From: Methanobacteriota archaeon
Lineage (GTDB): Archaea; Undinarchaeota; Undinarchaeia; Undinarchaeales; Undinarchaeaceae
Direction of reading: 5' to 3'
NCBI GenBank assembly: GCA_002687935.1
Contig: NZBN01000007.1
Location: forward strand, 5,030-69,029
DNA length: 64,000 nucleotides
Shown: positions 1 through 46,352 of the stretch, piece by piece
How the letters are laid out: each line of letters begins with the position of its first letter
How positions within the stretch are numbered: the first letter of the stretch is position 1
Notes under the pieces: generated by a model
Told to the model about the DNA's origin: nothing
Database searches by the model: none
The model's input: the letters and a program-made list of their open reading frames with translations, nothing else
Program-made: the position numbers and the translations under genes

Positions 1-1
1 C

Positions 2-21546: not shown

Positions 21547-21944
21547 TGGAAAAAGACGACAGATTTGATGAATGGAAGCCTCCTAAGATAAAGGACGGAG
21601 AACTCACTAAGTGGAATTGGATGGTTCAGAATGTGGAAGGTCTAAAACTCGGGAAGAAGACAGATATTGGAGTCTTCACTTACATAAATGCAAAACACGG
21701 CGTTGAAATACAGGACAATGTACAGATTGGCTCACACTGTTCAATTTATTCAGAATCTACAATTGACGAAAAATCCGGAAAAGTGATAATCGGAGAAAAT
21801 GCCAGAATAGGTTCTCACAGTCTGATAATGCCAGGAGTTATAATTGGAAAAAATGCAGTCATCGGGGCATTTTCCTTTGTTACAACTGATGTGCCTGACA
21901 ATTCTCTTGCATACGGAATTCCTGCAAAGGTGGTTAAAAAATAA
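21546..21944 (+). CDS. Hexapeptide-repeat (LbH) sugar N-acetyltransferase (LegH/PglD-like, short form).
   Basis: Isoleucine-patch hexapeptide repeats. Confidence 0.65.
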   Translation: MEKDDRFDEWKPPKIKDGELTKWNWMVQNVEGLKLGKKTDIGVFTYINAKHGVEIQDNVQIGSHCSIYSESTIDEKSGKVIIGENARIGSHSLIMPGVIIGKNAVIGAFSFVTTDVPDNSLAYGIPAKVVKK

Positions 21945-23081
21945 ATGAAAGTCCCTCTCTTCAAGACTTATTGGAATCAGGAAGACATAGAGTCAGTGAA
22001 AGCGGTAATCGAGCGAGGTACTTATTGGGCAACCGGTCCTGAAATAGAAGAATTTGAGAAGGAAATTGCCGAGTTCGTTGGAGCAAAATACTGCCTGGCT
22101 TTTAATTCCGGAACGTCGGCTCTCCATACACTCTTACTGGCTCATGATGTAAAGGAAAAAGAAGTCATAATTCCGTCTTTCACATTCATTGCAACAGCAA
22201 ACGCTGTCGTACTCGCCGGAGGAATTCCGGTTTTTGCAGAAACAGAAGCAGAAACCTACGGTCTCGACGCAGAAGATGTAGAATCACGCATTACAGAGAA
22301 GACTGCCGCAATATTAAATCTGGATTTTGGAGGATTCCCTGCAAGAGACCACGAAAAACTCAGAGAAATTGCAGACCGTCATAATATCCTTTACATAGGA
22401 GATTCAGCCGAGTCCCTCGGTTCAAAAACGAAGGGAAAATTACTCGGTTCAATTGCGGATTCTACAATTTTCAGTTTCTGTCAAAATAAAGTTGTCAGCA
22501 CAGGAGAAGGCGGTGTTCTTATCACTAATGATGAATCAGTTTATGAAAAATCAAAACTCATTCGTTCCCACGGACGTGTAGAGTTAGCTGAGGATTATTT
22601 CTCAAGTACAGAAGACAATGACTACATTCAAATCGGCTACAATTACAGAATGCCGACAATGTGCGCAGCTCTCGGACTTTCTCAAATGAAGAAAATTTCT
22701 GAAAACATTAAAATGCGAAGGTCTAATGCAGACTTTCTGAATGAAGGTCTTGGAAAAATCGAGCAGGTAAAAACCCCGACACTCATCGAAGGCGATTTCC
22801 AGGTTTATCAGATGTATACAATTCAACTTCCGAACCAGGAAACCAGAGATGCTCTTCAGAGTCATCTTACTGAGCAGGGAATTAGTACAAAAGTTTATTT
22901 CAATCCAGTTCATCTCAAAACAGTTTACAAAAATATGGGTTGTTCAGAAGGGGACCTACCCAAAACCGAGACACTCTCTGGAAAGGTTCTAACACTTCCA
23001 ATGCATCCATCACTTACTGAGGCTGAAATGGAGTATATAATAAATTCAGTGGAGGATTTTTTCAAAAATGTCGAAGCTTGA
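21945..23081 (+). CDS. DegT/DnrJ/EryC1-family PLP-dependent sugar aminotransferase (LegC/PseC-like).
   Basis: Class IV-fold aminotransferase motifs. Confidence 0.8.
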   Translation: MKVPLFKTYWNQEDIESVKAVIERGTYWATGPEIEEFEKEIAEFVGAKYCLAFNSGTSALHTLLLAHDVKEKEVIIPSFTFIATANAVVLAGGIPVFAETEAETYGLDAEDVESRITEKTAAILNLDFGGFPARDHEKLREIADRHNILYIGDSAESLGSKTKGKLLGSIADSTIFSFCQNKVVSTGEGGVLITNDESVYEKSKLIRSHGRVELAEDYFSSTEDNDYIQIGYNYRMPTMCAALGLSQMKKISENIKMRRSNADFLNEGLGKIEQVKTPTLIEGDFQVYQMYTIQLPNQETRDALQSHLTEQGISTKVYFNPVHLKTVYKNMGCSEGDLPKTETLSGKVLTLPMHPSLTEAEMEYIINSVEDFFKNVEA

Positions 23082-24468
23082 GGATATGTTAATAGACCAG
23101 TCAACTTCCATAAAGGAGGCAATGCGGATTATAGACAGAGCCGGAGTAAGAATGGCTCTTATTGTCGATGACAATCAAAAATTAAAGGGGATAGTTACTG
23201 ACGGAGATATACGGAGAGGAATAATTAAAGGAGCCGGAAACGAGGACGAAGTTTCAACTGTCATGAATAAAGCTCCATTAACTACAAAAGAGAATGTTCC
23301 TCACCAAGATGTTTTGGATTTACTCAAGACTAATAAGGTTCTAGGAATCCCAGTTCTTTCAGAAAGCGGAGAAATTATTGATATGCTTCTTCTGGAAGGA
23401 AATGAGGTTCTCTCATACACAAAACACGAAATAGAAAAGAAGCACCTAAGAAAAATACTCGTCATCGGTGGAGCCGGATATATCGGCTCCGTTCTTGTCA
23501 GAAAGCTTCTTGACAAAGGATACAAAGTAAAAATTCTCGACAATTTCCTCTATGGGGATGAGTCTTTATCCTCAATAGAATCTGACGAGCTCACACTTCT
23601 CGAAGGGGACACCAGACATATAGAAGATGTTACAGAAGCCGTCCAGGATGTTGATGCTGTTGTTCACCTTGCTGAGCTTGTAGGTGATCCTGCTTCAAAT
23701 CTAAATCCAAAATTTACCCAGGATATAAACTACCTTGCAACACGTAATGTTGCCTCTGTCTGCAAACACTTCCACCTCAATAGGCTGGTATATGCTTCAT
23801 CTTGCAGCGTTTACGGAGCATCAGAAGAAGGAAAGCTCCTTACAGAGGAATCCTCTCTCAATCCTGTTTCTCTTTATGCTAAAATGAAGATAAGCTCTGA
23901 GAAAGCCCTTGTTGAAATGAAGGATGACAGTTTCAGACCGACAATTCTGAGACTGGGAACTGTTTTCGGTCCTTCACCACGCCCAAGATTTGACCTTGTC
24001 GTTAATCTTCTCACTGCAAAGGCTGTAAGAGACGGAAAAATAACAATTTTCGGTGGAGATCAGTGGCGTCCGAATGTTCACGTTGAGGACGTTGCCGAAT
24101 CTATTATTTCTGTATTGGAAGCCCCTCTTGATAAAGTAGGTGGAGAGGTTTTCAATGTCGGGTCAGAGAAAAATAACCATACTATAAATGAGCTTGGAAA
24201 TTTTGTCAAAGGAAAGGTTCCTTCTGCAGAACTAATAATAGAAGAAAAAGATGTTGACAAAAGGGATTACAAAGTAGATTTCACAAAACTCCGCGAAGGT
24301 CTTGAACTGAGCCTGGAAAGAACTGTGGATGAAGGAATATCAGGAATAATTTCCTTCCTGGAAGACAACAAAGATATCAATTACGAAGATTCAAAATACA
24401 GTAATGTCAAATTCCTCGAACAGGGAAAGCTAACAGAATTCTTTTCCAACGGGGATACAAAAACATAA
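23068..24468 (+). CDS. Tandem CBS domains fused to an NAD-dependent sugar-nucleotide 4,6-dehydratase/epimerase (LegB/PseB-like).
   Basis: N-terminal ~120 aa CBS pair, then a GGAGYIGS Rossmann motif and YAKMK catalytic dyad. Confidence 0.75.
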   Translation: MSKLEDMLIDQSTSIKEAMRIIDRAGVRMALIVDDNQKLKGIVTDGDIRRGIIKGAGNEDEVSTVMNKAPLTTKENVPHQDVLDLLKTNKVLGIPVLSESGEIIDMLLLEGNEVLSYTKHEIEKKHLRKILVIGGAGYIGSVLVRKLLDKGYKVKILDNFLYGDESLSSIESDELTLLEGDTRHIEDVTEAVQDVDAVVHLAELVGDPASNLNPKFTQDINYLATRNVASVCKHFHLNRLVYASSCSVYGASEEGKLLTEESSLNPVSLYAKMKISSEKALVEMKDDSFRPTILRLGTVFGPSPRPRFDLVVNLLTAKAVRDGKITIFGGDQWRPNVHVEDVAESIISVLEAPLDKVGGEVFNVGSEKNNHTINELGNFVKGKVPSAELIIEEKDVDKRDYKVDFTKLREGLELSLERTVDEGISGIISFLEDNKDINYEDSKYSNVKFLEQGKLTEFFSNGDTKT

Positions 24469-28728: not shown

Positions 28729-30216
28729 TTGTGTGGGAGAATGAAGTTAAAGATAATACTTGCAACATTTGTAATATTCCTTATAGTTACTACTCCAGTT
28801 CTTGCTGAAAGCAGTCTTCAAACACCAAGAACCGGCGACGTTTTTAATCCTGGTGATTCCATTCTGATTACAGGAACTATGACTACGTCGTCAAGTGTTG
28901 CAGGAGCAAATGTTGATGTTTATGCATACAGTAGTGAACTTAACCTGCGAGTTTCTATTCTGTCCAAATTCTACAGTTTCACATCCGACGTTCCTGTTAC
29001 AATATCACAAATAAATCAGGGTGTTGTGAGCTGGACAATTCCACAGGATTCCCGTTCTTCTAGTGACTGGGTAATCTACACAAATGTTTCAAAAGGAGTT
29101 CAGGTATATTCTCTCGCTTCTTCTGGGGAATTTGAAATTTCCAGAGAACTTTCACTTTCATATGGTGCAAATGCTTACAAATTCAATCTTGGTGAATCTC
29201 TTACAATAACTGGGACAGTTCTCGGGGCAGGTGGAAATCCTGTTGACGGAACTGCAAAAGTGAGCTTTTTGGAGACAGTTCTCGGAACATCGTCTACAGA
29301 CTTTTCTTCTATCTCTGGTGGATATTTTGTATATTCAAAAGAGTTTACTTCTTCATCTGATGAAGGAAGTTTCGTTATTACTATTTCTGCAGAAGACAAT
29401 AACAATAACAGTGCACTTTCTGGAACTTTCCCTTTGACAGTTACAAATGATTTGTCTCTGTCTTGCACCATCCCTACTACTGATATAAAACCCGGCAGTT
29501 CTGTCGCAGTAACTGGGGAATTGAAAGATATACACGGAAATCTACTTTCAGATGTGAGTGTAACTGCTCTGATAACAGATCCAGCATCTGCTGAGACTTT
29601 AAGACAGGAAGGAGTAACAGACGGAAACGGGAAATATGGTCTTGATTTCACTCTTCCAAAACTCGGAATGGCGGGTCTCTACAGCGTTCGTGTTGATGCC
29701 AGCGATTCAAACGGCAATGAAGGCCAGTGTGAGATGAGCTTTGATTTAGAGGGTGCCCGTTCTCTGAAAGCAGAACAACTCAGTTTGAATGGAAGTAGTC
29801 ATTATTCTGGTGATGAGCTTATTCTTGGTGTCAAAATTGAAAATGACGGAAATGTCGATATAGGTGGAGTTGTTAAAGTCTACTTCGGCGACGAAGAAGT
29901 TCATTCTTTTGATATATCAATAGAGCGTGCAGAAACCAAAGAAATTTCTGAGACATTTTCACTTGATGCAAACCTTGGAACACATATTGTAAAGCTTTCT
30001 ATTGTGGCACAGGGTCAGATCCTTCTTGAAAAGTCGCTTGACAACACAGTCGATGTTCTTGAAAGAAAAGAACCAGAAAAATTCAAACTAAAAACTACTC
30101 ATATAATATCTGGCTTGGTTATTTTTCTCATAGCATATGTACTAATTTTTTACTGGAAAGATGCCCGTGATTATCTCTGGCACAGACAGCACAAAAGGCA
30201 CTTGAAAAAACACTGA
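28729..30216 (+). CDS. S/T-rich cell-surface protein with signal peptide, CARDB-like beta domain and C-terminal TM anchor.
   Basis: Signal peptide, Ser/Thr-rich repeats, a C-terminal hydrophobic helix and a basic tail. Confidence 0.55.
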   Translation: MCGRMKLKIILATFVIFLIVTTPVLAESSLQTPRTGDVFNPGDSILITGTMTTSSSVAGANVDVYAYSSELNLRVSILSKFYSFTSDVPVTISQINQGVVSWTIPQDSRSSSDWVIYTNVSKGVQVYSLASSGEFEISRELSLSYGANAYKFNLGESLTITGTVLGAGGNPVDGTAKVSFLETVLGTSSTDFSSISGGYFVYSKEFTSSSDEGSFVITISAEDNNNNSALSGTFPLTVTNDLSLSCTIPTTDIKPGSSVAVTGELKDIHGNLLSDVSVTALITDPASAETLRQEGVTDGNGKYGLDFTLPKLGMAGLYSVRVDASDSNGNEGQCEMSFDLEGARSLKAEQLSLNGSSHYSGDELILGVKIENDGNVDIGGVVKVYFGDEEVHSFDISIERAETKEISETFSLDANLGTHIVKLSIVAQGQILLEKSLDNTVDVLERKEPEKFKLKTTHIISGLVIFLIAYVLIFYWKDARDYLWHRQHKRHLKKH

Positions 30217-30396
30217 TTATTCTGCGCCTTTTATTTTGGTTACCAGCTTTACAAGTCCAACTAATATCAAGTAGCTAGCTACAAGAAAGTTGAGAGAATT
30301 CGGATACAGAAATATAAGGACACCGAAAAAAACCATAAGAAGTGGTGAAATAAGTTCCCCAATTCCTACCTTTCTCAAGAGTCTGTGGATATTCAT
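30217..30396 (-). CDS. Possible 59-aa small membrane protein, below the ORF-track size cut-off.
   Basis: ATG at 30396, two hydrophobic helices, and a stop abutting the convergent surface-protein gene. Confidence 0.25.
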   Translation of the reverse strand: MNIHRLLRKVGIGELISPLLMVFFGVLIFLYPNSLNFLVASYLILVGLVKLVTKIKGAE

Positions 30397-30450
30397 TCCT
30401 AATCTCTTGAAACTTCTGTGTTTATATAATGCTTTCGATTTTTTTATTAA

Positions 30451-30524
30451 CAGGCCCGCCGAGATTTGAACTCGGGTTACAAGCTCCGCAAGCTTATGTG
30501 ATATCCAGGCTACACTACGGGCCT
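30451..30524 (-). tRNA. tRNA-Arg(GCG).
   Basis: Hand-folded cloverleaf: acceptor AGGCCCG/CGGGCCU, anticodon stem UAAGC/GCUUG with loop UUGCGGA, T-arm CCGAG-UUCAAAU-CUCGG. No CCA encoded. Confidence 0.75.
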
Positions 30525-30568
30525 ATGAACTAAAAACTGTTTCTCCGCTGTTATATATCTTTCAGCTA

Positions 30569-30937
30569 TCAATAGCCACTGTCAGTAGCAACTGGAGCTG
30601 AGCACACACACTTCGGTTTCATAATATCATTAAGCTCCTCACAAGTATAATCTGTCACATTCTTAGGACATACCTGACAGTCTTCAACAGGAGGGCATTC
30701 CTTGACTTCCGGACATACTACTATTTCAGGACAGATAATCTCAGGACAGCTGATATCCTGGCATTCTGGCGTTGCAGCCAGTCCATACTGGTATCCAAAA
30801 TAACCTCCTCCAACTACTCCGAGAACAAGCATCAGAGTCGCCGCTTTTCCTGGAATAAGTTCCAAAATGAGATCTATAACATCAAGTATTCCGAAAAAAT
30901 CTACCTTCTCTTCTTTGTTCTTTCTTCGCTTTGCCAT
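30569..30937 (-). CDS. Small membrane-anchored Cys-rich protein with CPE repeats.
   Basis: One TM followed by CPEIICPEIVVCPEVKECPPVEDCQVCP. Confidence 0.45.
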   Translation of the reverse strand: MAKRRKNKEEKVDFFGILDVIDLILELIPGKAATLMLVLGVVGGGYFGYQYGLAATPECQDISCPEIICPEIVVCPEVKECPPVEDCQVCPKNVTDYTCEELNDIMKPKCVCSAPVATDSGY

Positions 30938-31050
30938 ATTATCACTATGTATGGTCTCTCTTTAAATCCTTCTTTTATCAAACTCAAGAATTTAATTCAT
31001 TTAATTGCCTAAGGCAAAGTATTTTTAAAAGAGCGCTTTACCGTGATAGT

Positions 31051-32232
31051 ATGAAGTGGGATTTGAACTTTGAAAGGCTGGAAGAAGACTTATTTTCTCT
31101 AATAGAAATTCCAAGTGTTTCCGGAAATGAACAGGCAATTTCAAATTTTATTCTAAGTACATTAAAAAAATCGGGTTTAAAACCAGAGCAGGATGAAATG
31201 GGGAATATTATTGTTCAGATTGATGGAAAGCACAAAGGAAAGCATGTTATTCTAAATGGTCATCTGGATACAGTTCCTCCTGGGAAGGGCTGGAAAGGAG
31301 ATCCCTATAAAGCAAGAAAGGCCAATGGCAGAATCTATGGTCTTGGTTCTGCGGATATGAAGGCAGGGCTTGCCATAATGATGGAGCTTTCCCGTATTTT
31401 TCATTCACTCAAAAGAAACTTTTGCGGAAAAGTTACTTTTACATTTACTGTCGGAGAGGAAGTTGAAGATCACAAGAGGCACGGTGCATATCATATAACT
31501 AAAAATTTGAAAGGTGATTTTGCCCTGGTTCTTGAGCCGTCCCAGCAGGACGATTCCAAGAAAATATGTGTAAAAGTTGGTAATGGCGGTCGCTGTATCT
31601 TGAAGGCTAAGATACACGGAAAAGCAGCCCATTCCAGCAGACCCTTTCTTGGAGTAAATGCGTTGGAACTTGGCTCTCTAGTAGTCAACAAAATTAGAAA
31701 AGAAGCTCCCAAAATTAAAGAATTCAAAATTAAAGAATTGGGTGTGAGTTTCAGGCCTGGTTTTTCTGTTACACAAATGAGTGTTGATGACAGTCCTTCT
31801 AATGTTATACCTGATTACTGCGAGTTAATAATAGACCGCAGAACAGTTCCAGGGGAAAAACGGACAGACATTATTAAGTATGTTCGTTCCATTTTGGAGT
31901 CCGTCAAAAAAGAAAGTGGTATTAAATTTAAGTATGAACTCAAATTACTTGGCTACAGGAGACCGATTTTAATGCCCCTGAATTCGAAATTATTGAAAAC
32001 TCTTATAGAAAAAGTAGAGAAGAGATATTCTTACACGCCACGTTTACTATTTTCACTGGGAACTTCCGATGCGGGATATTTCGAAAAAAGTGGTACACCT
32101 ACACTATCATTCGGACCTGGAGATTTATACCATATCCATAAAGCTAATGAGCACGTCTCTAGGGCGGGGCTTCGCGCATATGCACTGATTTGCATGGATA
32201 TAATTTCAGATGTATGTGAGACAGGAAAATAA
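31051..32232 (+). CDS. M20-family metallopeptidase / deacylase (ArgE/DapE/LysK-like).
   Basis: HLDTVP and GSADMKAG metal-binding motifs. Start chosen at ATG 31051. Confidence 0.75.
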   Translation: MKWDLNFERLEEDLFSLIEIPSVSGNEQAISNFILSTLKKSGLKPEQDEMGNIIVQIDGKHKGKHVILNGHLDTVPPGKGWKGDPYKARKANGRIYGLGSADMKAGLAIMMELSRIFHSLKRNFCGKVTFTFTVGEEVEDHKRHGAYHITKNLKGDFALVLEPSQQDDSKKICVKVGNGGRCILKAKIHGKAAHSSRPFLGVNALELGSLVVNKIRKEAPKIKEFKIKELGVSFRPGFSVTQMSVDDSPSNVIPDYCELIIDRRTVPGEKRTDIIKYVRSILESVKKESGIKFKYELKLLGYRRPILMPLNSKLLKTLIEKVEKRYSYTPRLLFSLGTSDAGYFEKSGTPTLSFGPGDLYHIHKANEHVSRAGLRAYALICMDIISDVCETGK

Positions 32233-32233
32233 C

Positions 32234-33577
32234 ATGAGAAAGTATCTAAAAAGACCAAAAGTAGGTATGGAAGTCGAGTTGTTTACTCTAGACAATAATG
32301 GAATTCCAGTTCCTGCTGTAGATAAATTGATTAAGAATTGTTCTGTGCAGAAGCGGCAATACGCAATACAAAGAGAATATGCAAAACACCTGCTCGAGAT
32401 TGGTGCCTTCCCAACAATACAGGTTAGAAATCTTGCCTTAAGTTTCCTTGAAAATTTAGAGGCAGTTACAGAGACTGCTGAAGAACAGGATTTATTTCTA
32501 TATCCTTTGGGAACCTATCCTGGAAAATTTACAGCAGAAGTCAGAAGAGAGTATTCTCATGTCGTACAAGAGAAAGTTATTGGTGAAGAAGTTAAAAATA
32601 TAGCTCCAAAGGTCGCAGGTTTCCACTTCCATTACGGTCTTCCAAGAGGAATTCTCAATCGCTCGACATATGAGCTTAGAATGACAAAAAATCCAAAGGA
32701 GAGGGAGGCATTTTTGAGTGAATATAATTTTTTGATAGCGGCCGACCCGGCTCTGACTACCTTTATGCAATCTTCACCTTTCTTTGAAGGGAAGCTCTTA
32801 GGAAAGGACAGCAGAACTTTGCTGTATCGTGATATGAAAAGCAAAGTTAATGATGAAATTATAAGAGGAATTTACAGAGAAGAGAGAACTTTTGGAAGAA
32901 TTCCGCGTTATGCTAATACGATTGCAGACTTAAACTTCCTTGTTGAGAAGCGCAGAAGTAGCTGGGAAGCCTTGATGAAGGATGCTGGTATGTCCTATAA
33001 GAAAATTTCACACAGGAAAAAACCACTTGACTTGTATTGGGGTCCTGTAAGGATTAACAAGCTCGGAACTTTAGAACAGCGTGGAATGGATATTAATGAG
33101 CCGAAATACGTTGTTGGAATTTCAATTCTCTTGAGGCATATACTCAGACAGATTAATAGGATGGATCTCAAAGTTAAGGCAAGCGATTTTGGTGCATACA
33201 AGCCCTTCAAACTGGAAGGCGATACTATTCATATAGCTCCCTTTTCAAAAGTTAAAAATGACTTGCAGTATAAGTCTGCGCTGGATGGTCTAGAGGACAA
33301 GGAAATTTTGCATTATTGCCAAAGCTTCTATCGTCTGGCAAAGAAATTTATAGAACATGACAGAGGTCTTGCTCTCAAATCAATCAAAAATATGCTAAAG
33401 ACAAAAAGAACCAAATCTGATATGGTAATCAGAGCTGCAAAGCGAAAGGGCTACTCTGGTGATTCTGAACTGCCTCAGGAAGTTGCTGCAGAAATAGCCA
33501 TAAAATACTCTAAAAAATTCATCACAGAAATAGAAAAAACCAAATCAGATATCAAAAATATCAGCTTAGATGATTAA
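32234..33577 (+). CDS. Carboxylate-amine ligase of the GCS2/YbdK family (glutamate-cysteine-ligase-like).
   Basis: GMEVELF, LGTYPG and FHFHYG motifs resemble YbdK LGIELE/GGTHPF/HVHVG. Start is 2 nt after the M20 stop. Confidence 0.6.
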   Translation: MRKYLKRPKVGMEVELFTLDNNGIPVPAVDKLIKNCSVQKRQYAIQREYAKHLLEIGAFPTIQVRNLALSFLENLEAVTETAEEQDLFLYPLGTYPGKFTAEVRREYSHVVQEKVIGEEVKNIAPKVAGFHFHYGLPRGILNRSTYELRMTKNPKEREAFLSEYNFLIAADPALTTFMQSSPFFEGKLLGKDSRTLLYRDMKSKVNDEIIRGIYREERTFGRIPRYANTIADLNFLVEKRRSSWEALMKDAGMSYKKISHRKKPLDLYWGPVRINKLGTLEQRGMDINEPKYVVGISILLRHILRQINRMDLKVKASDFGAYKPFKLEGDTIHIAPFSKVKNDLQYKSALDGLEDKEILHYCQSFYRLAKKFIEHDRGLALKSIKNMLKTKRTKSDMVIRAAKRKGYSGDSELPQEVAAEIAIKYSKKFITEIEKTKSDIKNISLDD

Positions 33578-33586
33578 ATTATATAG

Positions 33587-33661
33587 TGCACCCGGAGGGA
33601 TTTGAACCCCCGACTTCTGACTTAGGAGGTCAGCGCCTTATCCAGACTAGGCTACGGGTGC
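33587..33661 (-). tRNA. tRNA-Arg(CCU).
   Basis: Acceptor GCACCCG/CGGGUGC, anticodon loop CUCCUAA, T-arm GGGGG-UUCAAAU-CCCUC. Confidence 0.8.
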
Positions 33662-33701
33662 AGACACTCCAATCCATCTGTATATTCGTATTTATCTCTT
33701 A

Positions 33702-35435
33702 CTACATACGTTCAGGAATCCGTATTCCGAGCAAGTAGAGGCATCTTCCGAGTGTATTGTAAACAGACTGTACGAGAAGTATCCTCGCCTTCCTCACGTC
33801 CTTATCCGTTTCCTTCAGTACAGGATGCTGAGCATAGAATGCGTTAAATTTTTCCGCCAAGTGTATAGAATAGTTTGCGATTATATCTGGCCTGTAATTC
33901 TTTGAAGCTTCCCTTACAGCCATTGGAAATTTACTAAGGTGCTTTATTATTTCATATTCCTCATCGTTTGGAACCTTCATGTCAACTTTAGCGGGGTCAG
34001 GGAATTTTTTAACATCTTCAAGTATATGCATTGATCTTACCGTGGCATACTGTAGATAAGGTCCCGTTTCTCCTTCAAATTCAAGTGAGCGTTCCCAGTC
34101 AAAGAATATAGTTTTATTATTTCCAATGTTCAGCATCTGGAATTTCATTGCCCCTAAAGATATATCCAATGCTATCTTCCTCTGCATTCTCGGATCTATG
34201 TCAGGATTCCTCAGCATAACTTCCTCAAGCGCCTTTTCGAACATGCGGTTTTTCATTTCCGAGTAAAGTATTGAAGTTCCTTCTCTGGATGACATCTTCC
34301 CGGAAGCAAGTGTAACAAGGTCGTATGGTATGTGTTTGCATTTATCCGCGTTCTTGAATTTCATCTTCTTAAGCACATTAAAGAGCTGCTGGAAGTGAAG
34401 CCTCTGCTCTGAGCCGGTTATGTATATTGACTTGTCAATTCCATAATCTTCAAATTTAGTTTTTGCCAGAGCAAGGTCCTTTGTCGAATACAAAGCAGTT
34501 CCGTCTGAACGAAGAATCAGGAAAATACCGAGCTTCTCCGGTTTTTCCATATTTATGATAATAGCACCGTCACTTTTCTTTGCTATTTTTTCCTTAAGGA
34601 GCTCCTGTACTATCTCCTTCCCTGGCTTTTCCATCTGGCTTTCAAAGAACCACACATCAAAATGAGCGTCCAAATCTTCGTATATCTTATTGAAATCATT
34701 TATAGACCACTGCTTGGTTTCATTCCAGAGTTGCATTAGGTCTCCATCACTTTCGTCCTCGAGATTTCTGAGAACTTCTTCAACTTCTTTCTTATAGTCT
34801 GGATATTGTTCTATTTTTTCACAGGCTTCAGTGTAGAGCTTGCCCAGCCATTCTCCCTTGCTTTCCCGTGGAACTTCCCCTTCGTGGAATTTTCTATAAC
34901 ACCATAGGACCTTTGCTACATGCGCTCCGACATCTCCAGGGTAGTTCGCCTGAACAACTTCATATCCGGACTGCCTTAGTATCCTTGAAAGGCTCTCTCC
35001 TAGGGAAGTTCCTCTCAAATGTCCTATATGGAAAGCTTTGTGCGTATTCGCCTGACTGTATTCAACCATCACTTTCTCTTCCTGCGGAAGGTTTTGTCCA
35101 TAATCAGTTTTTACAGCTTCTTTCAGAACACTTCCCATAAACAAATCTTTCTTGAAGAAGAAATTAACATAGGCTCCTGCAAGCTTAACCTTTGAGCAGG
35201 ACTTCGGTTTTTTGATATTAGCAAGTATCTTTTCCGCAAATTCTCTCGGACTTTTTCTCTTCAGTTTTCCCAGCGGGAAAGAAACACTGCATGCAAGGTC
35301 TCCCATTTTATAACTTGGAGGTTCTTCAATAGTTCTTTCAATTTCCACTTGTGGCTTTAGTTTTAGCTTTTTCAGAACTTCTTTTACTGCTTCTACAACT
35401 TCTTCCCGTGCTTCCATCCAAGGGTCTGGTATCAA
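33702..35435 (-). CDS. argS: Arginyl-tRNA synthetase.
   Basis: Class I HIGH-like HIGHLRG motif, KMSS-like MSSR motif, and a C-terminal DALR anticodon-binding domain. Confidence 0.85.
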   Translation of the reverse strand: MIPDPWMEAREEVVEAVKEVLKKLKLKPQVEIERTIEEPPSYKMGDLACSVSFPLGKLKRKSPREFAEKILANIKKPKSCSKVKLAGAYVNFFFKKDLFMGSVLKEAVKTDYGQNLPQEEKVMVEYSQANTHKAFHIGHLRGTSLGESLSRILRQSGYEVVQANYPGDVGAHVAKVLWCYRKFHEGEVPRESKGEWLGKLYTEACEKIEQYPDYKKEVEEVLRNLEDESDGDLMQLWNETKQWSINDFNKIYEDLDAHFDVWFFESQMEKPGKEIVQELLKEKIAKKSDGAIIINMEKPEKLGIFLILRSDGTALYSTKDLALAKTKFEDYGIDKSIYITGSEQRLHFQQLFNVLKKMKFKNADKCKHIPYDLVTLASGKMSSREGTSILYSEMKNRMFEKALEEVMLRNPDIDPRMQRKIALDISLGAMKFQMLNIGNNKTIFFDWERSLEFEGETGPYLQYATVRSMHILEDVKKFPDPAKVDMKVPNDEEYEIIKHLSKFPMAVREASKNYRPDIIANYSIHLAEKFNAFYAQHPVLKETDKDVRKARILLVQSVYNTLGRCLYLLGIRIPERM

Positions 35436-35740
35436 TATTTCTTCTTTCTCAGGCTGTTTGACAGCTTTCTTGGGCGCCTTTTAGTTGTTTTTTTCTTTCC
35501 CTTAACAGCTTTCTTAACCAGCCTTTTCTTAGAAACTTTAGCTTTCTTCACTGCCTTTTTCTTAACAACTTTCTTCTTCACAGTCTTCCTGTTAACCTTA
35601 GCAACTTTCTTAGAAACTTTAAATTTCTTAACAGCTTTCCGCTTGTCCTTAACAGCCTTTTTAGAAGTCTTTTTCACAGTTTTAGTCTTTTTCACCATTT
35701 TCTTCTTCTTAATGGGGTTTTTCTTGTTTTTTACAGCCAT
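35432..35740 (-). CDS. Lysine-rich (~45 percent K) low-complexity basic protein, translationally coupled to argS.
   Basis: ATG at 35740 sits 8 nt after the tRNA-Arg(UCG) 3' end. KKAVKK-type repeats. Its stop overlaps the argS start (ATGA). Confidence 0.55.
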   Translation of the reverse strand: MAVKNKKNPIKKKKMVKKTKTVKKTSKKAVKDKRKAVKKFKVSKKVAKVNRKTVKKKVVKKKAVKKAKVSKKRLVKKAVKGKKKTTKRRPRKLSNSLRKKKY

Positions 35741-35748
35741 AATTTTTA

Positions 35749-35824
35749 TGGGCCCAACGGGATTTGAACCCGCAATCTCCTGGTCCGAAGCCAAGTGTCA
35801 TAATCCGGGTTAGACCATGGGCCC
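35749..35824 (-). tRNA. tRNA-Arg(UCG).
   Basis: Acceptor GGGCCCA/UGGGCCC, anticodon stem CUUGG/CCAGG with loop CUUCGGA, T-arm GCGGG-UUCAAAU-CCCGU. Confidence 0.75.
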
Positions 35825-35846
35825 GCTGTGTATATAGTTTTTTTGA

Positions 35847-36389
35847 TTAAATAGTATTCGCTACTATGCTCAATATCCCACTAAAGTAGTATGTTAGCAA
35901 AAAGTAGTTTCCTATTGTATTAAAGAAACCGAAGGCGATTCGCCGGTCAAGTGGGTCAAAAAATACACGGTTTCTGATGATTGAGAAAAGGACATTTGTG
36001 ATTAATATTATGGACCACAGAGCGAATTGATAAAGGAGATGGGGTGGCGCGAAACTGACCGCAATCACAACACAAAACAGGGCAATCATGTCCATAATCA
36101 CCCATGGTATTTTCTGTATATTTCCAAGAATTTTCCCAGCCGGGTTCAGGAAAATCGTACTCATAACTATGGCATACATCGCTTCTGACAGCCCCAGGGT
36201 TGCGACGGCTGCAATAAGAAAAACGTTGTGAAATTCGAGTTTCAGGTTATCATATATAGAGCTCGACCTACTTGCTATTGTGATAAGACTTACAAGAATG
36301 ACACCTTTCCAAGTTTCTGGATAGAGGAGCATAGGAAGAACCATACAAACTATGATGGTCGTTAGCAGAACCTTTGCTCCAGTTTTCAC
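35847..36389 (-). CDS. Hypothetical polytopic membrane protein.
   Basis: 5-6 hydrophobic helices. No signature recognised. Confidence 0.45.
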   Translation of the reverse strand: MKTGAKVLLTTIIVCMVLPMLLYPETWKGVILVSLITIASRSSSIYDNLKLEFHNVFLIAAVATLGLSEAMYAIVMSTIFLNPAGKILGNIQKIPWVIMDMIALFCVVIAVSFAPPHLLYQFALWSIILITNVLFSIIRNRVFFDPLDRRIAFGFFNTIGNYFLLTYYFSGILSIVANTI

Positions 36390-36468
36390 CGTATTTTGAT
36401 AAACAACATGAATTAAATAATCATCGATAGCAGCAAGCTTAAAATAACAGGCTTCAATATCAAAGTCT

Positions 36469-37098
36469 ATGGGAAAACGGGAGCAGTCTTTTACATTTTT
36501 GAAAAAATCAGGTTCTCTTGGCCTTATAACGGCTGTGTTTTTCCTTCTCGCCGTTTATGGACTTATAGCCTCATCTAATATTCTCTTTATTGCAGGACTT
36601 TTTACAATACTGAGTATTTACAGCAGAATATACTCATGCAAAGCGCCGCTTGACATTTCTGTCATCGGCATCGGCTCAATCTGCATCGCTGTAGTTAGTG
36701 ATGTGTGGCTCGCCGCAATCTTCGGATTTTCTATGTGGCTCATCACAATGATGTGGCAGCCTTATATTGAATTCAGCTACCAAATACCTCACGCCATCGC
36801 TTCATTTATTGTGATGCTATTCTTTCCACTTTTTATTTCATATGCAGGAAAAAACCTGGTTCTTATGGCAGTTTCTTATGCCCTTGTAAAGTTCATAATT
36901 GAATCTATACTTTTCACACCACTCCTTAGGCCCGCCACAATAATTCCTGATTTGATATTTAATCTTCAGGAGCTTCCCTTTACAATATTCTATACGGCCA
37001 TTGTAATGCAGTTTTTCGCCGGTCCAATCTTACTTTCTCTTGGAATTTCTGGCTGGGAAACAGGCTCCTTGTGGTTATTTATAAAAATGATTTTCTAA
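36469..37098 (+). CDS. Hypothetical polytopic membrane protein.
   Basis: 6-7 hydrophobic helices. Divergent from the neighbouring membrane gene. Confidence 0.45.
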   Translation: MGKREQSFTFLKKSGSLGLITAVFFLLAVYGLIASSNILFIAGLFTILSIYSRIYSCKAPLDISVIGIGSICIAVVSDVWLAAIFGFSMWLITMMWQPYIEFSYQIPHAIASFIVMLFFPLFISYAGKNLVLMAVSYALVKFIIESILFTPLLRPATIIPDLIFNLQELPFTIFYTAIVMQFFAGPILLSLGISGWETGSLWLFIKMIF

Positions 37099-37107
37099 AT
37101 AAGAAAG

Positions 37108-37182
37108 TGGGCCTGGAGGGATTTGAACCCCCGATCTATTGCTTAGAAGGCAATCGCCTTATCCAGACTAGGCTACAGGCCC
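37108..37182 (-). tRNA. tRNA-Arg(UCU).
   Basis: Acceptor GGGCCUG/CAGGCCC, anticodon loop CUUCUAA. D- and T-arms are near-identical to tRNA-Arg(CCU). Confidence 0.8.
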
Positions 37183-37207
37183 GACAAAACTATGGGCTAG
37201 GGTCTTT

Positions 37208-40200
37208 TTATCGCTTTCTGTGATAATCCTGTAAGGACATTGCCTCGTTGTGGACTCCATTATACTTTCTGAATTTTATTGCCTCAAGAGCGGCACCCGC
37301 CCCTGACATTGTCGTTATACAGGGAATTGCGTGTTTTATACAGGCTCTCCGTATTTTATAACCGGCCCTCTCCCGGCTTCCTGCGGTTGTCGGTGTATTT
37401 ATCACCAAATCAATTCCCTTCTCTTTAATCATAGTGACTATATCTGGTATCCCTTCTCCGGATTTCAAAACCTTCTGTACTTTAATTCCATTAATTCTCA
37501 ACATTTTAGCGGTTCTTCCCGCTCCTGCTATTTTGAATCCCATATTTTCAAATTCCTTCGCAATTTCCACAGTCTCTTCTTTGTCTTTATTCCGTACAGC
37601 GAAGAAAATTTTGCCTTTTTCCGGAAGCTTCAGACCTGCTCCTAATTGAGCTTTATAATAAGCGATTGGAAAGTTATCAGCAATTCCCATAGTTTCTCCT
37701 GTGCTTTTCATCTCGGGTCCAAGTGCCGTATCTGAGCCTGGTATTTTGTTGAAAGGAAAAACAACTGATTTCACAGACACATGTTGGGTTTTTCCTGGCT
37801 CAGTACACCCAAGTTCTTTCAGACTTTTTCCAAGCATAACTCTTGCAGCAATTTTCGCAAGTTGAATTCCAGATGCTTTGCTTATGAAGGGGACAGTTCT
37901 ACTACTTCTTGGATTTACTTCCAGAACATAGACAATAGAATCTCTGACTGCATACTGTATATTCAAAAGACCCTTTATGTTGAGTTCCCTAGCAAGTTCC
38001 TCTGTATATTTCTTAATAGTCTTGATTTCTGCATCTGTCAAAGTTTGCGTCGGCGTTACACAACTTGAGTCCCCTGAATGAATTCCTGCCTGTTCTATAT
38101 GTTCCATTATACCACCTATCAATGTGTCAGTTCCGTCTGAAACCGCGTCTACATCTATTTCTGTTGCACTCCCTAAAAATTCGTCTATCAATACTGGGTG
38201 TTCCTTTGAAACCTTTACAGCCTCGTTAATATATCGTTCAAGATCTAAATCATTAAACACAATTTCCATTGCCCTTCCTCCTATCACATAACTTGGGCGT
38301 ATTAGAACCGGATATACAATTTTTTCTATTACTTCTCGTGCTTCCTCAAGGCTGTGAGCAATACCATTCTCTGCTTGCGGTATTCCCAATTTTTCTATAA
38401 TCTTTGAGAACTTATCCCTGTCCTCAGCTCGGTCCATGTCCTTCGGAGAAGTTCCCAATATATTCACACCCGCCTTTTCCAATAAAAGAGAAAGATTAAC
38501 AGAAGTCTGTCCTCCAAATTGTGTCATCACTCCGTAGGGCTTTTCATTATTAATTATTCTCATCACACTGCTAAATGTCAGTGGCTCGAAATAAAGACGG
38601 TCTGAAGTATCATAGTCTGTTGATACCGTCTCTGGATTATTGTTAATTATTATTGATTCAAAACCTTCTTTTTGTATCGCCCCAAGTGCATGAACAGTGG
38701 AGTAATCAAATTCAATTCCCTGCCCAATTCGTATAGGACCTGAACCAAGTATCATAATCTTCTTTTTATCTTCAGCTACTGCTTCATTCTCTCCTTCTGC
38801 AGAATAAAAGTAAGGTGTCTTTGCTTCAAACTCAGCTGCGCAAGTATCAACCATCTTGAAGCCCTCTATTTCTTCCCTTTCTAAAAACACTCTTTTAACT
38901 CCATTGAGGAACCAAGGGTCTATCTTGGTCAATTTGTGTATTTCTTCCACTGATACTCCTTTTTTCAGAGCGGATGCTATATAGAAAAGTCTTTTGTGCG
39001 TCGGTATTTCAAGCAGATAAAGATTTTCAAAATCCTCAAGACCTTCTTTCAAACTTTCTTTGTCAATATCAAGACTTGCTACAGCCTTTTCCAGACTCTC
39101 TTCAAAGGTTCTGCCTATTGCCATAACTTCACCAGTTGCCCGCATTTCAGTTCCCAATGTTCTGTCAGCAAGATGGAACTTCTCAAAAGGCCACCTTGGT
39201 ATCTTGGTTACAATATAATCAAGAGCAGGCTCAAAACTTGCCTTAGTCTCCTCAGTGATGGGATTGTCTATCTCATCAAGAGTCATTCCTATTGATATTT
39301 TCGCCGCAATAAGTGCTATTGGATACCCCGTCGCCTTTGATGCCAGAGCAGAGCTTCTGGAAACCCTCGGATTTACCTCTATCACAATATATCTGTTACT
39401 TTCTGGGTCAAGTGCAAACTGAATATTACAACCTCCCTCCACATTCAGAGCTCTGATTATTTTCAGAGATGCAGTCCTCAGCATCTGATATTCTTTATCG
39501 GTCAGAGTCTGTGATGGGGCGACAACTATACTGTCTCCAGTATGAATTCCCACTGGATCAAAATTTTCCATATTGCAGACAGTTATACAATTGTCTGCCG
39601 AATCCCGCATTACTTCATATTCTATTTCCTTCCAACCAGTGACACACTCTTCAATCAGAATCTGCCCAATCCTACTGTTCGCTATTCCTCCTGAGGATAT
39701 ACTTTCAAGTTCCCGCATATTTTCAGCTATCCCTCCACCTGTTCCTCCAAGCGTATATGCAGGTCTAACTATTACAGGAAATCCAACTTCTTCTGCTATC
39801 CGTTTTGATTCATCGACACTGGTTGCTATTCCTGATTTTGGTATAGGCTCGCCTATTTTAATCATCATATCTTTGAAAAGTTCCCTGTCTTCACAGTCCT
39901 TTATTGCCTTCAGCGGAGTTCCAAGTATCTCTACATTATTTTTTTCAAGAATTCCGGAATCTGCCAGCTCTGCAGTAAGATTAAGACCTGTTTGTCCCCC
40001 AAAACTGGACAGAACTCCGTCCGGCTTTTCCTTTTCAATTATTCTTTCAAGAGATTCAAGTGTCAGTGGCTCAATATATACAGAGTCCGCCATATCACTG
40101 TCAGTTTGTATAGTCGCAGGATTAGAATTCACTACTACAGTTTTCAGACCTTCTTCGCGCATTGACTTCAGAGCCTGCGACCCTGAATAATCAAATTCTG

Positions 40201-40270
40201 CAGCCTGTCCGATAATAACTGGACCTGCTCCTATCACCAGAACTTTTTTGATATCATTTCTTTTTGGCAT
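37208..40270 (-). CDS. carB: Carbamoyl-phosphate synthase large subunit.
   Basis: Two ATP-grasp halves and a C-terminal MGS-like domain. ~1020 aa. Confidence 0.9.
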   Translation of the reverse strand: MPKRNDIKKVLVIGAGPVIIGQAAEFDYSGSQALKSMREEGLKTVVVNSNPATIQTDSDMADSVYIEPLTLESLERIIEKEKPDGVLSSFGGQTGLNLTAELADSGILEKNNVEILGTPLKAIKDCEDRELFKDMMIKIGEPIPKSGIATSVDESKRIAEEVGFPVIVRPAYTLGGTGGGIAENMRELESISSGGIANSRIGQILIEECVTGWKEIEYEVMRDSADNCITVCNMENFDPVGIHTGDSIVVAPSQTLTDKEYQMLRTASLKIIRALNVEGGCNIQFALDPESNRYIVIEVNPRVSRSSALASKATGYPIALIAAKISIGMTLDEIDNPITEETKASFEPALDYIVTKIPRWPFEKFHLADRTLGTEMRATGEVMAIGRTFEESLEKAVASLDIDKESLKEGLEDFENLYLLEIPTHKRLFYIASALKKGVSVEEIHKLTKIDPWFLNGVKRVFLEREEIEGFKMVDTCAAEFEAKTPYFYSAEGENEAVAEDKKKIMILGSGPIRIGQGIEFDYSTVHALGAIQKEGFESIIINNNPETVSTDYDTSDRLYFEPLTFSSVMRIINNEKPYGVMTQFGGQTSVNLSLLLEKAGVNILGTSPKDMDRAEDRDKFSKIIEKLGIPQAENGIAHSLEEAREVIEKIVYPVLIRPSYVIGGRAMEIVFNDLDLERYINEAVKVSKEHPVLIDEFLGSATEIDVDAVSDGTDTLIGGIMEHIEQAGIHSGDSSCVTPTQTLTDAEIKTIKKYTEELARELNIKGLLNIQYAVRDSIVYVLEVNPRSSRTVPFISKASGIQLAKIAARVMLGKSLKELGCTEPGKTQHVSVKSVVFPFNKIPGSDTALGPEMKSTGETMGIADNFPIAYYKAQLGAGLKLPEKGKIFFAVRNKDKEETVEIAKEFENMGFKIAGAGRTAKMLRINGIKVQKVLKSGEGIPDIVTMIKEKGIDLVINTPTTAGSRERAGYKIRRACIKHAIPCITTMSGAGAALEAIKFRKYNGVHNEAMSLQDYHRKR

Positions 40271-41360
40271 TCATTAACTCCACAAATTTGTCAAATAAAT
40301 ATTCATTATCTTGTGGTCCTGGACATCCTTCTGGATGGTATTGAACTGAAAATATCGGAAGTTCTTTGTGGCGCATTCCTTCAACAGAGCTGTCATTAAG
40401 ATTTATATGACTTACTTCAAATCCACTACCCTCTATGCTTTTTGCATCCAGGGAGTATCCATGGTTTTGTGTTGTTATGTAAATTTTTCCACTTTCCAAA
40501 TCCTTAACTCCGTGATTTACTCCACGGTGTCCGAATTTAAGCTTGTAAGTCTTTGCCCCAGCAGCCAGCCCTATAATCTGATGACCGAGGCAAATCCCAA
40601 AAAGTGGGACTTCACCAAAGAGGTTCTTTACAGTATCAATTAAATAGGGAACCATTTCCGGGTCTCCTGGTCCACTTGAAACTATTACTCCGTCTGCTCC
40701 TTTCAGAATTTCTTCAGCACTTGTCGTCGGTGGAACAACACGGACGCTGACCCCTCGCTTGAGAAGACATCTGACCATATTTTGCTTTGCTCCACAATCT
40801 ACAAGTGTGACATTAAAATTTCCATCAACTTTGTATATTTCATCTTTCTTCCTTGAAACTTCTGGCAAAAGGTCTTCACTGTCAGGATAAGGTGTTTTTC
40901 TGAGTTCTTCTGCCACTTTTTCAGTATCGACCCCTTCCTTGCAAATTTTCCCCCGCATCGTTCCGTGCTCTCTCAACTTTCTGGTCAGAGCTCTGGTGTC
41001 TATTCCACTCACTCCGGGGATTTTATATTCTTTAAGAAACTCTCCAAGAGTTTTTTTTGACCTATGGTTTGAGGGCAGTTCACAGGAACTTGAAACAAGA
41101 AGTCCTCGTACTTGTATTTCCTTGGATTCAAAATCTTCACTAGTTATCCCATAATTTCCTGCAAGCGGATAAGTCATAGTAAGTATTTGCCCTCTGTATG
41201 ATGGGTCAGTAAGAGCTTCCTGATATCCGGTCATTCCAGTGCTAAACACAACTTCTCCAAAAACTTCAGAATCTTCTCCGAAAAACTCCCCTCTAAAAAC
41301 AAGTCCGTCCTCAAGTACAAGTAGTGCCTTTTCTCCCACAGTTTCCACTCTACCTAGCAA
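40254..41360 (-). CDS. carA: Carbamoyl-phosphate synthase small (glutaminase) subunit.
   Basis: CPSase small-chain N-domain plus a GATase (GICLGHQ) domain. Confidence 0.9.
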   Translation of the reverse strand: MLGRVETVGEKALLVLEDGLVFRGEFFGEDSEVFGEVVFSTGMTGYQEALTDPSYRGQILTMTYPLAGNYGITSEDFESKEIQVRGLLVSSSCELPSNHRSKKTLGEFLKEYKIPGVSGIDTRALTRKLREHGTMRGKICKEGVDTEKVAEELRKTPYPDSEDLLPEVSRKKDEIYKVDGNFNVTLVDCGAKQNMVRCLLKRGVSVRVVPPTTSAEEILKGADGVIVSSGPGDPEMVPYLIDTVKNLFGEVPLFGICLGHQIIGLAAGAKTYKLKFGHRGVNHGVKDLESGKIYITTQNHGYSLDAKSIEGSGFEVSHINLNDSSVEGMRHKELPIFSVQYHPEGCPGPQDNEYLFDKFVELMNAKKK

Positions 41361-46279: not shown

Positions 46280-46352
46280 GGCCCGGATGGGGTAATGGTT
46301 ATCCTTCCAGCTTGTGGAGCTAGAGATCCGAGTTCAATTCTCGGTCCGGGCC
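46280..46352 (+). tRNA. tRNA-His(GUG) with genome-encoded G-1 pairing the C73 discriminator.
   Basis: 8-bp acceptor stem (G-1:C73), U8, A14, anticodon loop UUGUGGA, T-arm CCGAG-UUCAAUU-CUCGG. One C-A mismatch in the anticodon stem. Confidence 0.65.

Follow-up and report, generated by a model that had tools for sequence, protein, structure and literature searches.

The window analysed here, a 64,000-nucleotide (nt) stretch of contig NZBN01000007.1 from an archaeon of the Undinarchaeaceae, carries an arginine locus in which argS, the gene for arginyl-tRNA synthetase (ArgRS), is surrounded by four tRNA-Arg genes. This cluster is real, non-random and ancient. The best explanation of the comparative sequence data is that the order carA-carB-UCU-UCG-argS-CCU-GCG, with the tRNA genes named by anticodon, is an arginine locus inherited from the ancestor of the Undinarchaeota-like DPANN archaea and kept across that lineage. 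The conserved layout hints at joint expression of the enzyme and its RNA substrates, although a neutral alternative to coupled expression remains plausible.

ARAGORN finds six tRNA genes in the whole window, and four of them are tRNA-Arg genes that lie on the minus strand around argS within 6.7 kb (Table 1). The initial annotation, made from the letters alone, had proposed these four genes with their anticodons and positions; ARAGORN (gcg, cct, tcg and tct) and the Rfam tRNA model RF00005 (gathering score 29) agree with it, the four genes scoring 56-73 bits and matching across model positions 1-71. All four are intron-free and display no pseudogene features by either tool, and tRNA-Arg(GCG) and tRNA-Arg(CCU) adopt the cloverleaf already by minimum free energy alone. 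The genes start 1359, 2163 and 3136 nt apart, with protein genes in between. Under standard wobble rules, the four anticodons can serve all six Arg codons, and the earlier claim of full coverage holds on that basis. The commonest Arg codon in the window is AGA (45%), followed by AGG (20%), CGU (11%), CGC (10%), CGA (8%) and CGG (5.4%, the rarest); no tRNA-Arg(CCG) was found at any argS locus compared, in the window or in relatives. Weak Rfam matches to 'Plastid-ycf2 5'UTR' (33 and 23 bits; gathering score 65.7) at 33586-33661 and 35748-35824 on the plus strand lie antisense to two of the tRNA-Arg genes and are regarded as artefacts.

We compared the argS neighbourhoods of eight lineages, with ArgRS 52-90% identical to that of the window; a metagenome scan with the ArgRS protein contributed one locus, L095. 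Intron-bearing tRNA genes in the relatives were located using the intron mode of ARAGORN, Rfam at the gathering score, or reading of the sequence by eye. The nearest named relatives of both ArgRS and histidyl-tRNA synthetase (HisRS), Candidatus Naiadarchaeum and metagenome-assembled genomes (MAGs) of the Undinarchaeales, are 53-58% identical and share the local gene order. On these grounds the window, which has no rRNA gene, probably belongs to an Undinarchaeota-like DPANN archaeon. The tRNA-Arg genes are kept around argS in every lineage: CCU and GCG lie downstream of it in 8/8, UCU and UCG upstream in 6/8, and the order is always the same. Each isoacceptor of the window has orthologues in relatives, the nearest outside its own species group being 84-97% identical, depending on the isoacceptor. 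In L092, the four tRNA-Arg genes and argS are packed inside 2.7 kb, with tandem tRNA pairs a few nt apart. The genes that separate the tRNA-Arg genes differ among lineages (ORF180 and ORF209, an AlaX-like gene, a VTT-domain gene, the M20 and GCS2-like pair, a 215-residue open reading frame (ORF)), and in L093 and L094 the whole upstream flank of argS has been replaced, with the remaining order intact. Neighbours unrelated to arginine are also syntenic, namely an MG2-domain protein, DUF3096 and acetyl-CoA synthetase subunits.

The connection to arginine synthesis through carAB, also put forward in the initial annotation, stands as adjacency, with carAB directly before tRNA-UCU and then argS in six of the eight lineages. 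The link is stronger in relatives than in the window itself: argG and argH precede carAB in L088, L091 and L092, and ornithine carbamoyltransferase (argF) and an amino-acid kinase lie 3-6 kb past argS, while neither argG nor argH is found at this locus in the window. CarAB serves pyrimidine synthesis as well.

As a background control, we used 80 argS loci (1.30 Mb) among the matches listed. Bacteria and other archaea are represented, about 20 of the loci being from other DPANN, and the encoded ArgRS is at most 45% identical to the window's. These loci hold 41 tRNAs, of which 7, in 6 loci, are tRNA-Arg; none of the 80 has more than two tRNA-Arg genes, and none has a tRNA-Arg gene directly against argS. 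By a rough estimate, which assumes a genome of ~0.7 Mb following the MAG sizes in PMC7414124, the chance that three more tRNA-Arg genes and argS would fall within 6.7 kb of a given tRNA-Arg gene is of the order of 1e-7. The linkage had been called striking at the outset, and it is supported as non-random, with four of the six window tRNAs inside 6.7 kb, preservation in eight lineages and no counterpart in the 80 control loci listed. A full-text search of the literature returned no description of this arrangement, and the Undinarchaeota genome paper gives tRNAs only as counts.

Table 1. Features of the arginine and histidine loci in the window, and the corresponding loci in relatives. Positions refer to the window unless an L handle is given; percentages are ArgRS identities to the window's enzyme.
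Feature	Position	Strand	Description
tRNA-Arg(GCG)	30450-30525	minus	56.3 bits Rfam, and ARAGORN; reads CGU/CGC; last in the conserved order
ORF122	30569-30937	minus	122 residues; one predicted membrane helix, Cys/Pro/Glu-rich tail; no family match
M20 metallohydrolase	30931-32232	plus	ArgE/DapE/LysK deacylase family; likely true start Met at 31051
GCS2-like protein	32210-33577	plus	455 residues; weak N-terminal resemblance to GCS2/YbdK carboxylate-amine ligases; 23-nt overlap with M20 gene
tRNA-Arg(CCU)	33586-33661	minus	68.6 bits Rfam, and ARAGORN; reads AGG
argS	33702-35740	minus	catalytic body 33702-35435; TIGR00456 470.7 bits (cut-off 261.65)
tRNA-Arg(UCG)	35749-35824	minus	60.2 bits Rfam, and ARAGORN; reads CGA, and CGG by wobble
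ORF180	35847-36389	minus	180-residue polytopic membrane protein; stop 22 nt upstream of tRNA-UCG
ORF209	36469-37098	plus	209-residue membrane protein; no family match; only in close relatives L001-L006
tRNA-Arg(UCU)	37107-37182	minus	73.1 bits Rfam, and ARAGORN; reads AGA
carB	37208-40270	minus	carbamoyl-phosphate synthase (Pfam/NCBIfam)
carA	40254-41360	minus	carbamoyl-phosphate synthase (Pfam/NCBIfam)
tRNA-His(GUG)	46280-46353	plus	encoded G-1; ARAGORN and Rfam
hisS	46374-47639	plus	20-nt spacer after tRNA-His, holding a GGTGA Shine-Dalgarno-like motif
tRNA-His-hisS, L096	3904-5284
tRNA-His-hisS, L097	3862-5269
tRNA-His-hisS, L098	3917-5278
Intron-bearing tRNA-Arg, L090	9775-9895
Intron-bearing tRNA-Arg, L091	9514-9985, 12179-12361
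Intron-bearing tRNA-Arg, L092	9334-9900, 11775-12057
Intron-bearing tRNA-Arg, L093	6537-6630
Intron-bearing tRNA-Arg, L094	13808-13922
argS locus, window			100%; upstream UCU, UCG; downstream CCU, GCG
argS locus, L001/L003/L095			90%; upstream UCU, UCG; downstream CCU, GCG
argS locus, L088			56%; upstream UCU, UCG (22-nt intron); downstream CCU, GCG
argS locus, L090 (Naiadarchaeum)			56%; upstream UCU, UCG (T-loop intron); downstream CCU, then GCG on the opposite strand
argS locus, L091			54%; upstream UCU (intron), UCG (three introns); downstream CCU (84-nt intron), GCG
argS locus, L092			52%; upstream UCU (109-nt intron), UCG (several introns); downstream CCU, GCG (two introns each)
argS locus, L093			53%; upstream rRNA operon, RNase P RNA; downstream CCU (intron, 2 nt after stop), GCG
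argS locus, L094			55%; upstream giant protein, OB-fold ORF; downstream three genes, then CCU (T-loop intron), GCG

The initial annotation had considered the CCU and UCU genes near-identical outside the anticodon arm and recently duplicated. A recent duplication is not supported. The two genes are 82% identical, and although their D and T arms are the same, the acceptor stems (GCACCCG in CCU, GGGCCUG in UCU) differ at 5/7 positions. Orthologues of both genes occur in relatives as distant as those with 52-57% ArgRS identity to the window, so the duplication is old. The window UCU gene is 97% identical to that of L092, against 82% to its own CCU neighbour; the window CCU gene is 80-84% identical to the CCU genes of L092 and L093.

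The identity of argS among the tRNA-Arg genes is confirmed by Pfam and NCBIfam, and its domains (Arg_tRNA_synt_N, 3e-17; tRNA-synt_1d, 1e-50; DALR anticodon-binding, 1e-27) are those of a class Ia enzyme. The 'lysine-rich partner gene', proposed earlier as a separate gene, encodes the N-terminus of ArgRS itself, an extension of ~103 residues with 49% Lys+Arg that start from the ATG at 35740. A database protein 100% identical to the window ArgRS is 679 residues long; it begins with MAVKNKKNPIKKKK, that is, with the 'partner' ORF, and runs on into the ArgRS body. In the window, a single missing A splits argS into the Lys-rich ORF and a 577-residue body. The run of A at 35479-35482 (minus strand) is A4 in the window and an in-frame A5 in all relatives, as well as in L006 (NCBI) and L007 (JGI), two other assemblies of the same population that are 99.9% identical to the window. 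Over 3662 nt, L006 and the window differ by one mismatch and one gap, and the gap is the single A of this run. The simplest account of the split is an error of assembly or a rare variant. Programmed frameshifting within the Lys-rich part was rejected as the default, given the in-frame A5 in the same-population assemblies and in all relatives. The exact database look-up of the 577-residue ORF returned no match because the true protein is the 679-residue fusion.

The fused Lys-rich form is also present in the 90%-identical relative (678 residues) and in two relatives at 53-55% identity (720 and 664 residues), and the extensions across the fused relatives measure 88-142 residues with 46-49% Lys+Arg. 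Protein lengths indicate that the majority of relatives in the clade lack the extension, whose occurrence is sporadic. The extension has no Pfam match, and in alignments with solved ArgRS structures only residues 134-679 of the full-length protein are covered. Lys-rich extensions of synthetases are reported to promote tRNA binding (PMC8319005), and by analogy the extension of ArgRS probably adds unspecific RNA affinity. The likeness to the Lys-rich appended domains of eukaryotic synthetases lies in a ~100-residue Lys+Arg-rich N-terminus on a standard catalytic body. Those domains belong mainly to eukaryotic class IIb enzymes, with some trypanosomatid cases (PMC8319005 and references 44-46 therein), whereas here a putative RNA-binding extension sits, sporadically within the clade, on an archaeal class I ArgRS. 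The window ArgRS is a rare archaeal case of a Lys-rich domain appended to a synthetase.

How the locus is expressed can be approached from its spacings. The discriminator of tRNA-UCG and the ATG of argS are separated by 8 nt (UAAAAAUU) that hold no Shine-Dalgarno motif. This distance is the same in the window, L001 and L006, and grows to ~36-124 nt in L088, L090 and L091; at 8 nt, the spacer leaves no room for an intergenic promoter between the two genes. On the other side of argS, the distance from its stop codon to tRNA-CCU is 40 nt in the window, 40 nt in L001, 59 nt in L088, 15 nt in L091 and 2 nt in L093. With spacings of 2-15 nt, any tRNA promoter would lie inside the argS coding sequence. 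The carB stop is followed by tRNA-UCU after 25 nt in the window and 29 nt in L088. Between 35903 and 33558, the coding strand is free of runs of five or more T; a T5 run first occurs 28 nt downstream of tRNA-CCU, and another lies 20 nt downstream of tRNA-UCU. A consensus TATA scan of the window locus yielded no decisive promoter call, and the putative promoters named here are TATA-like matches found by eye. One of them, GATATATAAC, is located 20-29 nt upstream of tRNA-GCG, which probably has its own promoter for this reason.

We infer co-transcription from the short spacings, the lack of a T5 run within the unit, an order that is conserved despite gene turnover, and a parallel case at hisS. 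Our model is that, in the lineage of the window, the ancestral arginine locus has been compacted into tRNA-mRNA transcription units processed by RNase P and tRNase Z, a reading of the sequence to which we give about even credence. One unit would comprise tRNA-UCG, argS and tRNA-CCU, possibly led by ORF180, a second would comprise carA, carB and tRNA-UCU, and tRNA-GCG would be transcribed from its own promoter. The two nucleases would excise the tRNAs from these transcripts, and the tRNase Z cut after tRNA-UCG would give an effectively leaderless argS mRNA, whose 8 nt before the ATG contain no Shine-Dalgarno motif. As a result, ArgRS, with the unspecific RNA affinity presumably added by its Lys-rich extension, would be made together with its tRNA substrates in a genome with few regulators.

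The parallel case is a second cognate pair in the window, tRNA-His and hisS. In 4/4 lineages, the tRNA-His gene lies 11-22 nt upstream of hisS on the same strand; that of Naiadarchaeum contains a 45-nt intron. There is no TATA-like box at the expected distance from tRNA-His; the only conserved TATA box (CTTAAATA) is found at 46080, ~200 nt upstream of the tRNA gene. Some 30 nt past this box, at 46117-46146 on the plus strand and ~130 nt upstream of tRNA-His and hisS, lies a micro-ORF that encodes MIRSECLHS before its stop codon. It is conserved as 9-10 codons with an invariant Cys-Leu-His (MKGICDCLHK, MKISDCLHKY and MKASECLHR, each followed by a stop, in relatives; four sequences compared). 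The micro-ORF could be a leader peptide or part of a small hairpin (GUGA...UCAC), and together with tRNA-His and hisS it is best read as one predicted transcript. In L096, hisG and hisD (5286-7882) follow hisS, so that histidine biosynthesis genes adjoin the tRNA-His-hisS pair as arginine genes adjoin argS.

Several observations weigh against the joint transcription of argS with its flanking tRNA genes. The transcript is argued from spacing alone, and archaeal promoters are compact: a TATA-like AGATAAATAC (ATAAATAC) fits in the 40-nt spacer between argS and tRNA-CCU, the T-loop of tRNA-UCG (TTCAAATC), centred ~25 nt before the argS ATG, could be the TATA box of a leaderless argS mRNA, and a TTTAAAAG box lies ~30 nt before argS in L090. 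Opposite-strand genes separate argS from tRNA-CCU in L090 and L094, and physical co-transcription is therefore not obligatory in the clade. The threonyl-tRNA synthetase (ThrRS) gene of the window (9312-11204, minus strand) has no tRNA-Thr near it in the window, which shows that not every synthetase gene of this genome is paired with its tRNA. The whole block is syntenic, including the unrelated MG2-domain gene, and inertia could therefore explain part of the conservation. Much of this would also fit a historical legacy, in which an old local duplication and anticodon change took place beside argS, little rearrangement followed, and each gene is expressed independently from its own compact promoter; we keep this account as a sizeable, if minority, possibility. 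It would accommodate the TATA-like boxes that can be placed before tRNA-GCG, tRNA-CCU, and argS in L090, the tolerance of insertions between argS and tRNA-CCU in L090 and L094, the synteny of the MG2-domain protein, DUF3096 and acetyl-CoA synthetase subunits, and the identical D and T arms of CCU and UCU, as in old paralogues. It sits less easily with an order that has outlasted both the turnover of intervening genes and the replacement of the upstream flank in L093 and L094, with spacings of 2-15 nt that leave a tRNA promoter only within the argS coding sequence, with the tight cognate pairing seen independently for tRNA-His and hisS, and with the absence of the arrangement from the 80 other argS loci among the matches listed.

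A regulatory role for the upstream tRNA would give the short spacing another meaning. The unprocessed tRNA-UCG would be an operator to which free ArgRS, helped by its Lys-rich extension, binds so as to block initiation, and tRNA-His would act likewise at hisS. With a spacing of 8 nt, kept in an 85%-identical relative despite a substitution in the spacer, the argS start codon falls inside the footprint of a tRNA-bound protein; at both argS and hisS, independently, the synthetase gene is preceded by a cognate tRNA, and the reported effect of Lys-rich extensions on tRNA binding (PMC8319005) points the same way. No T-box or other known leader was found: Rfam gave only tRNA matches upstream of argS, at the gathering score and at E<=1. 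Yet the scheme is purely inferential, the spacing widens to ~36-124 nt in L088, L090 and L091, most relatives lack the Lys-rich extension, and the operator would be lost if RNase P and tRNase Z matured the tRNA quickly; we judge the scheme quite improbable. An extended version, which we regard as unlikely, would place isoacceptor tRNAs, synthetase and biosynthesis genes in 'amino-acid islands' of the Undinarchaeota, where the tRNA by the start codon would be a sensor or operator, synthetase binding or the rate of tRNA processing would set translation, and tRNA-His-hisS with its micro-ORF would be a second instance. Least probable is that the cluster is the cargo of a mobile element or virus, or the result of tRNA-targeted integration. 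The sequence 3' of tRNA-CCU is indeed strain-variable, with L003 diverging exactly at the tRNA end and five contigs ending there, and in L090 a 1.6-kb insert is bordered by ~30 nt repeated from the argS 3' end. Against this, ORF180, ORF209, ORF122 and the GCS2-like protein include no integrase or PHROG match, no att-like direct repeat of a tRNA 3' end occurs in 30000-37400, G+C is uniform, and the flanks are housekeeping genes with clade-wide synteny. A mobile element explains at most the filler genes and not the linkage of the tRNAs to argS, and it is largely refuted for the core.

Among known systems, the E. coli thrU-tyrU-glyT-thrT-tufB operon and mitochondrial tRNA punctuation provide demonstrated tRNA-mRNA co-transcripts, in which the tRNAs are not cognate to the encoded protein. 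As at the argS locus, tRNA genes abut coding genes with short spacers, and tRNA nucleases would free the mRNA. The argS locus differs in that its co-transcription is inferred and its tRNAs are substrates of the encoded enzyme; tufB-type operons and tRNA punctuation are, by this analogy, nearest in presumed mechanism. The likeness to T-box leaders and the thrS operator is conceptual, a tRNA-shaped RNA before the cognate synthetase gene, whereas the argS locus has a complete tRNA gene and no Rfam leader match, and any regulation would be putative. To our knowledge, the regulation of aminoacyl-tRNA synthetases in archaea is largely uncharted, because archaea lack T-boxes; if the tRNA does serve as an operator, it would be a functional analogue of T-box or thrS-operator control, so far not known in archaea.

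The nearest known analogue in logic, as far as such a comparison reaches, is the pylT-pylS-pylBCD pyrrolysine cassette of methanogens, which unites a tRNA, its synthetase and biosynthesis genes (PMC3941956, PMC2933860). In both, a tRNA gene directly adjoins the cognate synthetase gene on the same strand (UCG and CCU at argS), and the layout is conserved across genomes. The biosynthesis genes of the pyl block have possible counterparts at argS in carAB and, in L088, L091 and L092, in the arginine genes nearby. The pyl cassette is a transferable add-on for the 22nd amino acid with one suppressor tRNA, whereas the argS locus is a vertically inherited core that serves a canonical amino acid through four isoacceptors on both sides of the synthetase gene, and no homology is implied. 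The tRNA arrays and operons of bacteria and archaea (e.g., PMC8421152) likewise have several co-oriented tRNA genes in a short stretch, arranged head-to-tail and with mixed specificities. The argS locus is instead mono-specific and interleaved with protein genes, its tRNA genes 1.3-3.1 kb apart. Head-to-tail tRNA genes less than ~100-200 nt apart, as in classical arrays, are not found in the window; tandem pairs occur only in L092, the one lineage close to an array. We conclude that the locus is an unreported, clade-wide and mono-specific variant of known tRNA-synthetase linkage. With argS ringed by the whole detected tRNA-Arg set and hisS preceded by tRNA-His, it offers a testable model of how very small genomes might couple the expression of an enzyme to that of its RNA substrates, and the layout is usable as a marker of shared ancestry for Undinarchaeota-like genomes.

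The same orthologous locus also documents the gain and loss of tRNA introns. Many of the relatives' tRNA-Arg genes contain one to three introns, D-loop and T-loop positions included, and the four of the window contain none, which makes the locus a clear case of such turnover. These introns caused seven of the tRNA-Arg genes in relatives to be overlooked or given the wrong name by ARAGORN and Rfam at default settings, and ARAGORN mis-called three of them (Pyl, Gly and Phe). Even if the linkage were only historical, the locus would be a useful curiosity and a warning for annotation, as intron-bearing tRNA-Arg genes are missed by default tools. The CCU and GCG genes of L092 share a 50-nt intron at 92% identity, suggestive of intron spread between tRNA genes; non-canonical intron positions and such spread are known in other archaea (PMC4090602, PMC3239211). 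Directly before the tRNA-Arg(UCG) gene of L092, two perfect tandem 67-nt copies (9524-9657) start like the 5' end of that gene.

Other traces of rearrangement are visible in the relatives. At 13318-13346 of L090, just upstream of tRNA-CCU, lies a ~30-nt copy of the argS 3' end (11703-11731, encoding GIEIPVRM and the stop). It stands 1.6 kb past the real argS stop, with two opposite-strand ORFs in between, and resembles what an insertion would leave behind in an argS-tRNA junction that used to be tight. Five independent contigs (L001, L002, L004, L005 and L007) end within ~70 nt of the tRNA-CCU 3' end (window 33586), two of them exactly there, which suggests that the sequence beyond tRNA-CCU varies between strains or is a hotspot of recombination. 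L088 contains a 127-nt direct repeat, 93% identical (8949-9075 and 9851-9977), that covers the T-arm, 3' end and ~100 nt of flank of tRNA-UCU and tRNA-UCG. The repeat includes the first codons of the alaX-like gene, so that its copies precede the alaX-like gene and argS and leave a 13-codon relic ORF before the latter. In L093, from an Undinarchaeales MAG, a 16S-tRNA-Ala-23S operon and the RNase P RNA gene (1-4440) lie immediately upstream of argS.

The protein genes between the tRNA-Arg genes of the window are lineage-variable fillers, being on the opposite strand or lineage-specific, and replaced in relatives. The initial annotation had counted an M20 peptidase and GCS2 ligase pair and two membrane proteins as members of the cluster. 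The identity of the M20 protein is upheld by Pfam and NCBIfam. It scores 198 bits against TIGR01910 (cut-off 217.6) and falls under the trusted cut-off of every specific equivalog, its closest solved structures are DapE and ArgE, and on this evidence it is a deacylase not assignable to ArgE specifically. The GCS2 assignment is reduced to a weak N-terminal match (Pfam E=0.003, under the gathering score; 27.5 bits against the NCBIfam YbdK family, cut-off 176), with no relative among solved structures. Neither this pair nor the membrane genes are supported as functional members of the cluster. The pair and ORF122 are colinear in the 88%-identical contig L095, and the GCS2-like gene is not at the corresponding position in L003, L088 and L090. 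In L003, homology to the window ends exactly at the tRNA-CCU 3' end (L003 6741 onward) and a TPR gene comes next; a VTT-domain gene occupies the place downstream of tRNA-CCU in L088, and other ORFs do so in L090. ORF180 is the sole interleaved protein gene with an orthologue (33% identical) at the same position in Naiadarchaeum (L090). Its family is very narrow, with 12 matches at E<=0.001 in a full HMMER search of 1.84 billion representatives, 11 of them real, distant representatives and one spurious; a word search found only a 96% twin. ORF180 and ORF209 were considered as paralogues and rejected, as their similarity is not significant (E=0.49). The G+C content is uniform across the region, at 0.385-0.41.

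Elsewhere in the window, co-oriented genes at 14220-24468 (plus strand) encode NeuB, a UDP-GlcNAc 2-epimerase, a DegT aminotransferase, a cytidylyltransferase, a HisF/HisH-like pair and epimerases, a cluster that probably directs the synthesis of a nonulosonic acid for the cell surface. At 52460-57919 (plus strand) lie mevalonate and isoprenoid lipid genes, comprising two GHMP kinases, an amino-acid-kinase-family protein that is probably an isopentenyl phosphate kinase, an FMN-dependent dehydrogenase and a UbiA prenyltransferase.

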